From a virus (Duplodnaviria > Caudoviricetes), in the IMG/VR virus record IMGVR_UViG_3300021255_002485, positions 32,001 to 96,000 of that record: 64,000 bases of DNA, one strand, 5' to 3'. Below, piece by piece: positions 14,460 through 42,313 of the stretch. The stretch's first letter is position 1. The number at the start of each line of letters is the position of its first letter. Made by a program: the position numbers and the translations under genes. The notes beneath the pieces are model-generated. The model saw only the letters and a program-made list of their open reading frames with translations. It was not told where the DNA came from and did no database searches.

Positions 14460-14488
14460 AGGAGACGCAATCAGCGTCTCCTGTTTTG
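14460..14488 (+). terminator. Rho-independent terminator
   Basis: AGGAGACGC-aatca-GCGTCTCCT followed by GTTTT. Confidence 0.65.
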
Positions 14489-14536
14489 TATCATAATAGG
14501 TTTCTTTGGAATTATTTTATGAAAAGGACTAAAGAT

Positions 14537-14808
14537 TTCAGTAACCCACGACTGAAGTCGTGGGATTGTTAGAAACCACTACATAGTGGTGACAATCCCA
14601 ATGCTGAATAGCCTAAATCCTACGAGGACTACGTTAAGAGAGAATATATAGGCACTTTGGAATGTATAGCCAAGTTCCGAACACTGCGGTCAGTGATTAA
14701 ACAATTCTGTTGGGTAGGGATAGTGTTGCTGATAAAAACCTCTCATTAACATTGGCGATGGCTACCTAACCACTCTTCGGAGTGAGTAATTAAAATAATC
14801 GAAAGGAG
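14537..14808 (+). ncRNA. HEARO / IscB omegaRNA scaffold (IS200/IS605 end), orphan with no iscB ORF
   Basis: TCAGTAACCCACGACTGAAGTCGTGGG terminal hairpin followed in order by GACTACGTT, ATAGGCAC, GGAATGT..CCAAGTTCC, CACTGCG, GATTAAACA, AAAACC, AACATTGGCGATGG and an AAAGGAG RBS, matching the HEARO layout as recalled. Confidence 0.85.
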
Positions 14809-14822
14809 TATATGATGATTTT

Positions 14823-15206
14823 ATGATTAAATATACAAGAACAACAGCGGATAAACTTGATACCGTTCCTTTGATAGACGGACAAGTAATAACCGTTTTA
14901 GATGGAGATAATTATATCCAATATTATGATTTTTATGATTCCAATTCTAATACCGTAATCAGAAGAACTGCCAAATCAAGCGGTAGCGGTCATACTATCC
15001 TCAACGGCTCCGGCACGTCAATGACGCAGAGAAGCAATCTGCAATTCAGCGGCGGTCTTACAACGTCAGATGATAGCACCAATGGCAAGACGGTAGTATC
15101 TGTAGATGTGACTAATCAGATAACACAGTCAGAAACCAAACCCGTATCATCAGGTGCGGTATATACAGCTATAGGCAATATAGAAACACTATTAGCAAGT
15201 ATTTGA
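14823..15206 (+). CDS. Tail fibre/adaptor protein
   Basis: N-terminus resembles ORF 20551 (DKL...GQ.I.V.D); GHTILNGSGTSMTQRSNLQF and KPVSSGAVY fibre-type motifs. Confidence 0.6.
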   Translation: MIKYTRTTADKLDTVPLIDGQVITVLDGDNYIQYYDFYDSNSNTVIRRTAKSSGSGHTILNGSGTSMTQRSNLQFSGGLTTSDDSTNGKTVVSVDVTNQITQSETKPVSSGAVYTAIGNIETLLASI

Positions 15207-17630: not shown

Positions 17631-19007
17631 ATGTCGATAAAAATAGGTCATGCCTCTATAGCAGATAATGGTAAAGTATCCGGTGGAATACCGGGTGATC
17701 AGACCAAAGCCGAAGTATGTATAAGGAAATGGTATAATAAGCCGTGGAGCGTTATGCTTCGTCCTGTTAATGAAGAAATAGCCGAAAAATCAGCAAAAGC
17801 TTGTGAAGCAGGCTGTGCTAATGATTTTATAGGTTATTCACAAGCAAAACGAAACACGTTACATACACAGGCGATAATTGCCAATTATGATTTATCTAAA
17901 ATATCCGTTCCTTGCGAAACAGATTGTTCAGCTTTTATGACGGTATGTGCTATAGCGGGTGGAGTAAAGGAACTCGAATATACGGGGAATGCTCCGACTA
18001 CGAGCACAATGGTAGATATTTTTACGAAGACAGGTAAGTATAAGAGTTATACAGATAGTAAATATTTGACGAGCGACAAATATCTCAAACGTGGAGATAT
18101 TCTTGTTAAGCCCGGTTCTCATGCTGTCATGGTGATAGAGAATGGAACTAACATTTCTGAAAAGAATACTAACATTTCTTCACTCTCCTATCCTTGTAAG
18201 GGTATAGACGTTGCTGCGTGGCAAACAGGATTGGACTATAACAAACTGAAACAAGGTGGCGTTCAATTTGCAATTTTAAAGATTATTCGTAAAGATGGAA
18301 ATCCCGATGGACAATTCGAGAATCATTATAAGGGTTTTACACAAGCAGGGATTCCTGTCGTCGGTGTGTATAATTACGTATATTCCGTAAATGTTGAATC
18401 TGCTAAAATAACCGCCCAAAAGGTTATAAGAATATTAAACGGAAGAAAACTTCCTGTTTGCATGGATGTAGAAGATAAATGTTTACAAGGTTTAGGGGAA
18501 CGACTGATAGATATAATCAATGGATATCAAGAAGTAGTGAAAGGCGCAGGTCTTCCATTTGTTTTATATACGGGTATGTCGTTCTGGAATTCATATATTA
18601 AGCCATATCAAGCCAAGCTGAGGAGCAAGAATAATTGGATAGCGAGATATTACAACGGATACAACGAAATGAATATATCTCAAACTCCCAATAATAAATA
18701 TAAGCCAACTATGCCGAATTTAGCAGGTTGGCAATATACATCTTCGTTAGCTATTTCTGGTAGCCCCGGAAGACTTGATGGAGATATTTTATATTCTTCT
18801 TTACAAAATCGTGTTGCTGATAAACAACAACGCGGTATTGTTAAAGCGAACACTCTTCGTGTTCGAGAGCAACCTAATACAAATTGTGCAACCCTCGGAT
18901 ATCTAAAACGAGGTGAAATGGTATATATCACTAGCACCGATCCTCAAACCGGATGGTATAACATCGGGAGTGGTTGGGTTTCTAATGTATATATAGATTT
19001 AGTCTAA
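17631..19007 (+). CDS. Endolysin: NlpC/P60-CHAP-like peptidase + GH25 muramidase + SH3b
   Basis: ETDCSAF...GDILVKPGSHAVMV; GIDVAAWQ...DVED...WIARY...WQYTS; LRVREQPNT...GWY. Confidence 0.85.
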   Translation: MSIKIGHASIADNGKVSGGIPGDQTKAEVCIRKWYNKPWSVMLRPVNEEIAEKSAKACEAGCANDFIGYSQAKRNTLHTQAIIANYDLSKISVPCETDCSAFMTVCAIAGGVKELEYTGNAPTTSTMVDIFTKTGKYKSYTDSKYLTSDKYLKRGDILVKPGSHAVMVIENGTNISEKNTNISSLSYPCKGIDVAAWQTGLDYNKLKQGGVQFAILKIIRKDGNPDGQFENHYKGFTQAGIPVVGVYNYVYSVNVESAKITAQKVIRILNGRKLPVCMDVEDKCLQGLGERLIDIINGYQEVVKGAGLPFVLYTGMSFWNSYIKPYQAKLRSKNNWIARYYNGYNEMNISQTPNNKYKPTMPNLAGWQYTSSLAISGSPGRLDGDILYSSLQNRVADKQQRGIVKANTLRVREQPNTNCATLGYLKRGEMVYITSTDPQTGWYNIGSGWVSNVYIDLV

Positions 19008-37797: not shown

Positions 37798-40700
37798 TCA
37801 TTCTACATTTATTTTCACATTTATTTTTTTTATGTCACAAAGGACGCATAGATATTTAGCTATATCTTCTGCCCACGCTGAGTTTTCCATGTAAATTGTT
37901 TCAGCAAAATGTAACATCGGATTCATATAAATTGCTTTTTCTTCATCAGTAGCTTGTTCAAATTTTTCATAGTCAGAAACAAATTCAGAAAAAATTTTTT
38001 CCATATGATTTAGATATTCTGCCGTTTTTGGTAATTGTTTCTCAAACATTGCACATCATTCCTCCTATCAAATTGTACTTTTATAATAATTTGGGTAAAA
38101 TCATCTCTTTTATATATTCATCTATTGTTTTCATATTTAAGTTTTCATAAGTTTCAAACTGTCCGAGAATTAATACAAATGATTCATGCTGCGGATCTGA
38201 TGCTCTAACATTTTCATAGAACTTTTCAAGAGCCTCTTCTGATGGATTTACTATACAATATCCTGAACAGTGTCTATATGGATACCATTGCACATATATC
38301 AATCCTTGCGTTGCACACCAATGACGTAGTTGATTTAATCCATTTATTGTCTTCATATTTTCCTCTCATAAAAAGTTTATTTCATTCCTCATTCCCACTT
38401 TCTGCCAAACACAGGTAAGTGATATAATCCTCTCGTCCAAGCATCTTCTAGACATTTTACTAAGGTTTCTATACTAATTATTTGAAAATTTCTTTTACTA
38501 AACCAAACGAATCCAGGTTTATCCTCAACAGGTACAAAATTCTTTTTAATAAAATCTTCGATCTCTGTCATTTCTTATCCTTACTTTCTGCATCACGTCT
38601 TTTTGCGCGTTCCTTGTCGTAAGCGCATTTATCACAATATCCATATCCATGAAGCCAACAGTATTCTCGGCAATATGATTCACAAGTATTAAATCCTATT
38701 CTCTGCATTTCGTTTTCCGTGACAGAATCATAAAAACCATCACCGCCCCAACTCTCTAACATGTATGCCCCCTCACTTAGATATTTTCTTTAATCATACG
38801 TTACCTCTAATTATTCTGTGATCTTCGCAAAGTCATCTTTATATACGAATTTGTCTTTCATAAAATGTCCGAAACCAATGACTTTACTTCCCCATCCACC
38901 AGAACCTTCCAGCACAATTCTACAAGGAATATTTTTGAATTCACTCAGAACAAATCCATCTTCATCCGTCAAATCAAATAATTCCACTAAGGCTTTAATT
39001 TGCCAGCCAATATTATCCGTATTATTATAATCATGATATAAGCTACATGACTTTGTCCAAATATCAAGACTCACCACATTTCCGAAATGTCCAATACAAA
39101 CAATATCACTTCCAGTAATTATGTTGTTTTCTATAGAATTACCATCATCTAAAATTTGATTCTGTGTTTTTATAATGTCTCTTAATTTCATTCTGATTTT
39201 TCCTCCTCTTCAACAACCGTAATACAATTTAGCAATGTGCCAAATACCCCATGAATATCAACGTCAATTATTTTTTCTGTAGCCAACTCAATAGGATTGT
39301 CATTCACAAATCCAACGCACTTGCTGCTAGTATGATCTACAATTTTTGTTATATATACTGGATCGTCCAAATTCATATCCATTAATTTATTTATCAGCTC
39401 ACGAACAGTCATATTTTCTCCTATGAAAGTTTTATTTTATTTAATCGCCATATTCAATATTATAATATACGGTATGTTCCACACCATTAGGAACTCTTTC
39501 ATATTCCATATACCCATGTTCCTTTGATAATTCATGATTTAGATATTTTTCCAAATCATCTTTAGATGTAAAATCGAGAGGTTTATGGTCATAAAATGTT
39601 ATTGTCCAAACTTCATTTAATATTGGTACATCACTATTATTTTTTACTAATCTCGCCATTGATTATTGTCCTCCAATAAAAATATCTTTTTATTTGCATA
39701 TCCTCAAGATCCGCTTTGTCTGACATTCTTCTATTATTCTTTTGACGCTGCACCCAAAACGAATAATCTTATCACAATCCTCACAACAGCTATTCTGTTC
39801 ACAGAAAGACCAGAAATATCCGTATACTCTATCCGGGTTACGTCTATATCTCCCCTGTTCTAATTCTTCTCTTGTCATTTCATTCTCCAATTAAAATATT
39901 ATTCATCATGATATTTTAAGAATTCATCATATGCACCCTCAATTATTTCTTGAAAAGCATAAGTAAACATCTGACTCCATACCAAATCATCAGCTTCGTA
40001 AGGGGCATCATCACGAAGAATGTTTATAATCTTTTCTACAAACTCCTGTTCTTTGCCTTTTATTACCGTTGCATATCTTCCAACACCATTAAAGTTTTCC
40101 GGGCTTGTGTGAAACAACCTTTTTAACTCTGCTATAGAAATTTTCATTGTCAGAGTTTTATCATCCAGTTCAAATTTCATACTTTGATCTCGCCATTTTT
40201 TCATTTTACATCCTCCAATCAATAGAATAATCCTTTTATTGTTGCTCTGTTCTATCCATTTCTTTTATGCTTATAACCATTGAATGTTCCATATAATACT
40301 TATCAAAAATTGCATTGATAAAAAGCAGGGCATCTTCTAATCGCATATTTGATGCGAGTAGATTATTTCCATGTAATACTTCGAATCTTCGTTCTTCCAT
40401 TTTTTTCTCCAATAGAATCAACTTTTTATTTATAATTCCATGTTCTCATTATATTATCTCAGAGTATAATAATATGGGTATATTGAATAATTTGTACGTG
40501 CTATCTGCATTGCTCTTTTACACTCTTCTATTTTGTTTAAAAGATTTTCGTATTCTATATTATGAATTCGTAAATCAGCAAGGACTTTTGCTTGTACCTC
40601 CGGAGAAGGATCTTCGTCTAATTTATAGTATCGTTTCATAATCTCGTTTTCTTTGTTAACATGTTGTAAATTCATAATCTCATCATCTTTTTGAGAGATT

Positions 40701-41341: not shown

Positions 41342-41425
41342 TGCAGGAGAAGGGACTCGAACCCTCATGAGAATCTTCTCAACGAATTTTAAGTCCGCTT
41401 TGTATTCCAATTCCAACACTCCTGC
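41342..41425 (-). tRNA. tRNA-Leu(TAA)
   Basis: GCAGGAG acceptor, GCGGA-CTTAAAA-TTCGT anticodon arm, long variable arm, GGTTCGAGTCC; CCA not encoded. Confidence 0.92.
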
Positions 41426-41797: not shown

Positions 41798-42313
41798 TCA
41801 ATCTAATTTAAGAAAATCTTTTCTGTTCCTCAAATACCCGTCTTTGAATAATTCGTACATCTTCAGATCATACAATCGACCATCAGCCAGTTTACAATGC
41901 TTTGTATATGTTCCAACTATACGACCACCGCATTTGTTAATAAACTTGTCGTACATCTTCTCTGCCGGATTACCTATATACACATTAAATTCAATCTTAT
42001 TGAAGTTGAATTTACAAAATATATCATCAATTGCTTGCATAACATCTTTGCTGAAAGTTATCTTATCATCAGTGAAATTAATAATATTGAGATCAAATAC
42101 AACATTAGCCGCTCTATCTACAGAATAACCAATGAATCCAATTACGTCACAGCGAGCTACTGAAACAAACTGATGATCATTGACGGTGCTTTCTTCCGGT
42201 AGGAATTCTTCATAGTAGCAGCCATTGTGATAAAACAAGTATTTGTCATCAAACCATGTTTTTCTAAATAAATGTTGTAATTCATCTGTATAAAACTGTG
42301 CTGGCTTAAGCAT
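41798..42313 (-). CDS. GNAT (RimJ/RimL-like) acetyltransferase-fold protein
   Basis: VIGFIGY, FNFNKIEF.V..GNPA..MY, GGRIVG, YDLKMYE. Confidence 0.65.
   Translation of the reverse strand: MLKPAQFYTDELQHLFRKTWFDDKYLFYHNGCYYEEFLPEESTVNDHQFVSVARCDVIGFIGYSVDRAANVVFDLNIINFTDDKITFSKDVMQAIDDIFCKFNFNKIEFNVYIGNPAEKMYDKFINKCGGRIVGTYTKHCKLADGRLYDLKMYELFKDGYLRNRKDFLKLD

Follow-up and report, generated by a model that had tools for sequence, protein, structure and literature searches.

A complete IscB omegaRNA without its nuclease ahead of a phage tail-fibre-type gene: probable remnant of an IS200/IS605-family element

A complete IscB omegaRNA (HEARO) scaffold was found directly upstream of a tail-fibre-type gene in a complete phage genome that contains no IscB, TnpA or TnpB. 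The window, i.e. the whole stretch of 64,000 nucleotides that was analyzed and to which positions refer unless another record is named, corresponds to bases 32001–96000 of a 131,801-bp virus record from gut or rumen, which carries direct terminal repeats (DTR) and is rated complete. The locus is probably an immobilised, nuclease-less remnant of an IscB-encoding element of the IS200/IS605 family (ISC element). Its 286 nt (14537–14822) retain the hairpin of the right end (RE), the complete omegaRNA, the 5' UTR of iscB with its Shine-Dalgarno (SD) sequence and the tip of the far end (LE). An initial annotation, made from the sequence alone, had described an orphan scaffold and proposed that it might act as a guide in trans, as a decoy or as a leader of the downstream gene; taken as a whole, that interpretation is partly supported.

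The scaffold was identified by cmscan as HEARO (RF02033, the IscB omegaRNA) on the plus strand at 14537–14770, with a score of 126.3 bits (E 9.5e-26) against a gathering score of 83. The match spanned model positions 1–211 of 211 and was not truncated, bearing out the completeness claimed in the initial annotation, and it was the only HEARO copy in the whole record. The extent first given to the scaffold needed correction, as the RNA runs past the Rfam model through a UUCG-capped hairpin (14771–84). Meers et al. (doi 10.1101/2023.03.14.532601) describe the Rfam HEARO model as devoid of the downstream structural elements, and the RE as the boundary of the RNA. A 23-nt block that includes this hairpin (14770–14792) is identical in the window, in several bacterial iscB-linked loci and in three phage contigs (L192–L194).

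The structure of the RNA is equally well kept. In an RNAalifold consensus computed from a 19-sequence alignment, the window RNA formed 49 of 50 consensus pairs, and the iscB-linked copies formed 88–100% of them. Comparison with the RNA of the iscB-linked locus L095 showed 14 differences at paired positions, 13 of which still pair (9 compensatory and 4 one-sided changes) and one of which is broken. The conserved AACAUUGGCGAUGG box is found in the window scaffold as well. By score and structure the locus is a member of the HEARO/omegaRNA family, and its scaffold is free of decay, with a structure as intact as that of iscB-linked copies. Preservation of this kind is compatible with a recent deletion as well as with selection on a function of the RNA.

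No effector accompanies this RNA. Pfam searches of the whole phage genome were negative for RRXRR (the N-terminal domain of IscB), HNH and the Y1 transposase, and gave for TnpB only a sub-threshold zinc-ribbon match within an unrelated 744-aa open frame. Searching the whole genome by tblastn with three IscB proteins gave a best E-value of 0.25. The reported lack of iscB and tnpA therefore holds genome-wide. The RNA is not directly 5' of an ORF with HNH and RuvC (IscB) features; the next ORF encodes a 127-aa fibre-type protein (14823–15206) in which no IscB domains were found. Because no cognate effector is present in the same genome, the locus is not an OMEGA system. Three tRNA genes were observed on the minus strand in the early or accessory region of the window (41342–41425, 43375–43448 and 45533–45604).

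The element sits within the tail region. The upstream side holds two tail-region ORFs of very large size as well as a 76-aa ORF and closes with a terminator-like hairpin (Table 1), and the 127-aa ORF is followed downstream by a 329-aa ORF, a BspA-type LRR protein and an endolysin (ELLD + GH25 + SH3). Short ENA/Logan contigs encode two homologues of the 127-aa protein. In one of them (P0002) the N-terminal 48 residues are identical and the aligned part shows 95% identity; the other (P0004) is 60% identical overall and keeps the start Y-x-K/R-T...KLDTV. Since the homologues share the N-terminus, the ATG at 14823 is the native start of the fibre-type gene. An origin of the first codons of the fibre gene from iscB was considered and rejected, the N-terminal peptide being conserved in the 60%-identical homologue. 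A sigma-70 promoter scan from the terminator to the scaffold detected no plus-strand promoter, and no terminator was found between the RNA and the fibre gene. As none separates them, the remnant is probably transcribed together with the fibre gene as a leader of its mRNA.

Table 1. Positions of the features discussed (window coordinates unless another record is named)
Feature	Position	Strand	Basis or remark
Intrinsic-terminator-like hairpin with T-run, closing the upstream tail gene cluster	14460..14482	+	9-bp stem, 6 GC pairs; inverted repeat I3
Upstream copy of 12-nt direct repeat	14511..14522	+	11/12 identical to 14815-14826; spacing 304 nt
Predicted guide: phage flank directly 5' of the scaffold, 16 nt	14521..14536	+	Position relative to the start of the covariance-model match
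HEARO / IscB omegaRNA scaffold, full model match	14537..14770	+	126.3 bits; 49/50 consensus pairs kept
First scaffold hairpin, the RE (transposon-end) subterminal hairpin	14545..14564	+	Inverted repeat I5; weak alignment to far-end profile
UUCG-capped 3' hairpin of the omegaRNA, past the Rfam model	14771..14784	+	Inside the 23-nt block 14770-14792
Ex-iscB 5' UTR with SD AAAGGAG at 14802-14808	14785..14811	+	Alignments to L109 and G150 (L182)
Five-codon mini-ORF (MMIL-stop) at the iscB-start position	14812..14826	+	Sequence; TGA stop overlaps the fibre ATG
127-aa tail-fibre-type ORF, ATGA start = transposon-adjacent motif	14823..15206	+	N-terminus conserved in P0002 and P0004
HEARO of Parabacteroides phage PF672P2	L002:3953-4166 = OP172820.1 57570-57783		130 bits

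Relatives of the element with their nuclease in place were found in phages and bacteria. An 18-nt motif from the RNA core retrieved 61 loci from IMG/VR, mostly with an ORF of 414–419 aa about 24 nt past the RNA. The ORFs of two of them (L017 and L029) are IscB by Pfam (RRXRR + HNH), and the RNA of L017, the closest phage copy, is 77.6% identical to that of the window. With the L017 IscB as a probe, a bacterial set of 80 loci was fetched, mostly from rumen and gut Lachnospiraceae. The best DNA match was the leader of an intact iscB in Butyrivibrio sp. INlla21 (L109), with 82.8% identity over 14605–14810, and two Lachnospiraceae MAGs matched the window RNA at 81–82%. Intact IscB genes of 412–414 aa with the same RNA subtype were present in the three further large phage contigs (L192–L194). 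The intact elements (L109, L095, L100, L017 and L192–L194) have in common with the window an RNA that is ca. 77–83% identical, the 23-nt 3' hairpin block, the SD region and a terminal motif ending in ATGA. By contrast to the window, which is devoid of both, they carry an IscB of 412–439 aa (RRXRR + HNH) and an LE hairpin. In two of the phages a tRNA gene (L017:7725–7798 and L048:8405–8476) lies 30–115 nt upstream of the HEARO, and from this arrangement the omegaRNA may be co-transcribed with the tRNA in both.

The junction between element and fibre gene was dissected with these relatives. Homology to iscB leaders passes through the SD at 14802–08 and ends at about 14810–14813. This SD is the AAAGGAG ribosome-binding site (RBS) that had been pointed out at first together with the terminal hairpin at 14545–14564, and both are present. 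It lies 17 nt past the last RNA hairpin and 14 nt before the fibre ATG, and no other SD is close to the fibre start. The mini-ORF 14812–26 begins 3–6 nt past the SD; from the position of the iscB start to the fibre ATG there are about 10 nt. The last 9 nt of the mini-ORF (14818–26) constitute the terminal motif of the family, made up of the LE tip and ATGA, and the ATG of this ATGA is the start of the fibre gene. Full-length relatives carry a hairpin of the same type 3' of iscB, then a short tip and an invariant ATGA, after which the flank diverges, and the tip in the window matches the ends of 17–21 full elements, the match being short and AT-rich. A profile of the far-end hairpin, built from 17 full elements, found nothing in the phage genome but the RE hairpin itself, to which it aligned weakly (E ca. 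3). The statement that no second IS end is present is thus correct for the hairpin of that end, but not for its terminal motif. This motif shows the locus to be a putative in-situ deletion derivative of a full element, although the evidence of the LE tip amounts to 9 nt of AT-rich sequence and a near-identical upstream 12-mer is unaccounted for by the remnant model.

The 12-mer and its downstream partner (14511–22 and 14815–26) bracket the guide and the remnant, the upstream copy standing 15 nt before the scaffold. Its 9-nt core occurs 8 times in the window versus 3.5 expected, so that the repeat may have arisen by chance; it might also stem from a decayed copy of greater age or mark a joint left by recombination. 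A 9-mer at 14504–12 is found again within the RNA at 14655–63. A second, older element remnant upstream, suggested by the repeats at 14504–14522 and a GGTTTC box, was considered; the LE profile gave it no support.

On the other side of the scaffold, the guide is predicted where it had first been placed, as the 16 nt ending at 14536. It contains an AAAGGA (14523–14528) that is presumably the native SD of the fibre gene and that would stand 8–9 nt from the fibre ATG with 14537–14822 removed. The phage genome contains no further match to the predicted guide with two or fewer mismatches. The abstract of PMC12660989 gives NWRRNA as the TAM of OgeuIscB, a pattern with which the letters ATGA are compatible.

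Insertion between the SD and the start codon of a gene appears to be a habit of the family. Among IscB loci L093–L172 and L192, the set used for family-level counts, 15 of 32 had an SD-like tetramer 5–20 nt ahead of the scaffold, compared with 3 of 32 for a control stretch lying further upstream, and the terminal ATG opened an ORF of at least 60 codons in 9 of 21 full elements. On these counts, members of the family often lie between the SD and the ATGA start of a gene; it follows that RBS sequences often make up their guides and that element and target gene are transcribed together. A different arrangement was observed in a Butyrivibrio sp. MAG (JAILBM010000078; L110:263–1532), with three tandem units upstream of a single iscB. 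Each unit consists of a mini-array of a 36-nt CRISPR-like repeat (period ca. 66 nt; 10 repeats in total) and a 234-nt omegaRNA-like scaffold. In units 1 and 2 an SD and about 12 iscB codons come after the scaffold, and unit 3 leads into the intact iscB. This locus has the appearance of a CRISPR-associated IscB in which the module of array and scaffold is present in triplicate.

The history of the window can be proposed from what is seen at the other loci. We infer that a full element, such as is common in Lachnospiraceae and in phages of this family, inserted beside the ATGA start of the fibre gene and split the native RBS (14523–28) from the ATG. iscB and the LE hairpin would later have been lost by deletion in place, the probable end points being a short repeat in iscB codons 2–4 and the LE tip; a deletion at microhomology is suggested because, in relatives, the string TTTATG sits in iscB codons 2–4 and again in the tip. 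In its present state, the mini-ORF with its AUGA overlap has the layout expected for translational coupling, and the ex-iscB SD would serve translation of the fibre gene by way of these five codons. The remnant is immobile, since a TnpA needing both hairpins cannot move it and the phage is without TnpA. As the phage has no IscB gene, it cannot put the RNA to use as a guide on its own; for RNA-guided cutting, the host or a co-infecting phage would have to supply the IscB.

Other phages hold elements at different stages of loss. Two incomplete phage records (G001 and G002) contain a full HEARO with an iscB stub behind it, the stubs being 29–46 codons long. The cultured Parabacteroides phage PF672P2 (OP172820.1, complete genome) has one full HEARO of 130 bits and no IscB. 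As in the window, the RNA is an orphan, the element tip is retained and a gene with an ATGA start lies directly downstream; the RNA differs in being of a Bacteroidota-phage subtype, ca. 73% identical to the window RNA over the core. At this HEARO the record annotates a hypothetical protein on the minus (antisense) strand, PF672P2_00077. The stubs of G001 and G002 and the clean loss of iscB in PF672P2 belong to the same decay series as the window remnant, although preferential retention of the RNA cannot be shown from a phage sample that was chosen by RNA motif. A complete 92,259-bp DTR record (G004, IMGVR_UViG_3300045988_141526) contains four HEAROs (24–223, 18346–18531, 38217–38417 and 42004–42244) and two IscB matches. 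One of these matches, at the far end of the record, is close to the HEARO at 24–223, and the two are perhaps one copy across the terminal repeat. Immediately downstream of an orphan HEARO of this phage is a gene whose product has crAss001_48 and Tad2-like (anti-Thoeris) domains.

Loci of this kind are known, since both standalone omegaRNAs (PMC10691335) and protein-less IS200/IS605 derivatives (doi 10.1101/2023.03.14.532601) have been described. Standalone omegaRNAs, as PMC10691335 presents those of Altae-Tran et al. 2021, resemble the window in having no adjacent effector or transposase and in a guide that is the flank of a former insertion site. In that account they occur in genomes that also hold effector-containing loci, by contrast to the present complete phage genome without IscB.

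Work in trans with compatible effectors has been reported for standalone omegaRNAs (PMC10691335), and the fully intact scaffold raises the same prospect here. The RNA, transcribed late with the fibre operon, would be loaded on an IscB of the host or of a co-infecting phage, which we regard as unlikely though less so than the readings that follow. It is similarly doubtful that the complex would then cut related phages with an uninterrupted RBS–ATGA fibre allele, in which the guide-matching flank is beside ATGA. Exclusion of the competitor, or copying of the remnant and the linked fibre (receptor-binding) module into it by recombination, is an equally tentative outcome. Natural IscB needs about 13–15 matched bases (PMC13180657), and related phages with the uninterrupted allele would offer the predicted guide its natural target. 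The phage's own allele would be protected because the insert separates the guide match from ATGA, there is no off-target in the phage's own genome, and the same RNA subtype accompanies an intact IscB both in genomes of Lachnospiraceae and in three further large phages. Against this stand the missing effector in the phage and the rarity of IscB in the candidate host family: among 401 sampled genomes from the family of Butyrivibrio sp. INlla21, IscB exceeded the Pfam cut-off in just 20, and window-like RNA was present in about 11.

Nor did the searches that were run recover a relative with an empty site or with a full-length element at this site, and simple decay would give the same anatomy. The guide 18-mer, with which the initial annotation's proposal to look for an empty site was followed up, had no match in IMG/VR, and neither had a 23-mer of the fibre start. 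Queries with the 127-aa protein and with a 1203-aa protein gave no usable syntenic relative in IMG/VR, and an alignment query of the JGI metagenomes recovered distant fibre motifs alone. When a 3.3-kb query was run against the 401 genomes, the match was restricted to the RNA. Identical copies of the remnant were found neither in IMG/VR nor in the sampled genomes, and an exact 24-mer of the RNA had no match in the genome contigs.

It is improbable, and more so than action in trans, that the RNA has been domesticated as a regulatory leader, so that the folded RNA, or IscB bound to it, tunes translation of the receptor-binding module. The anatomy of a leader, put forward in the initial annotation, is indeed there: the nearest SD to the fibre start comes from the IS and is close behind the last RNA hairpin, and the end of the mini-ORF overlaps the fibre start in AUGA. 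There is, however, no sign of regulation beyond donation of the SD, and the arrangement follows from the insertion habit of the IscB family between SD and ATG.

An intact mobile mini-transposon without protein genes, similar to PATEs and movable by TnpA in trans, is a very unlikely identity for the locus. An RE hairpin and a terminal motif are both present, and similar mini-elements have been reported in Geobacillus. PATE-like IS200/IS605 derivatives (doi 10.1101/2023.03.14.532601) likewise have lost the protein gene and kept an RE-bounded RNA, but they have both subterminal palindromes and are multi-copy, whereas the window element no longer has the LE hairpin and is single-copy. Of the features expected of such an element, a far-end terminal motif with TAM, although short, was found, and hairpins at both ends and multiple copies or signs of recent mobility were not. 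Because the far-end hairpin is absent and the copy single, the locus is not an intact mini-transposon of this type; the profile result, the few nucleotides between the iscB-start position and the fibre ATG and the lack of TnpA argue in the same direction.

A decoy that soaks up host IscB would be conceivable by analogy with RNA-based anti-CRISPRs, given the intact scaffold, but it is the least credible reading, with IscB rare in the candidate host family, the element single-copy and, to our knowledge, IscB not established as an antiphage defence.

The nuclease-less remnant that we favour represents a clearly dissected example of the decay of IscB elements in phage genomes. What is particular here is that the complete phage genome is without IscB and that the remnant forms the leader and donates the SD of a tail-fibre gene. 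If the RNA works with an IscB supplied in trans, the virus would be carrying just the guide half of an RNA-guided nuclease. For the family, the case suggests that, once iscB is lost, an SD brought in by the element itself can drive translation of the gene that it interrupted, which would account for the tolerance of such remnants in essential late genes.
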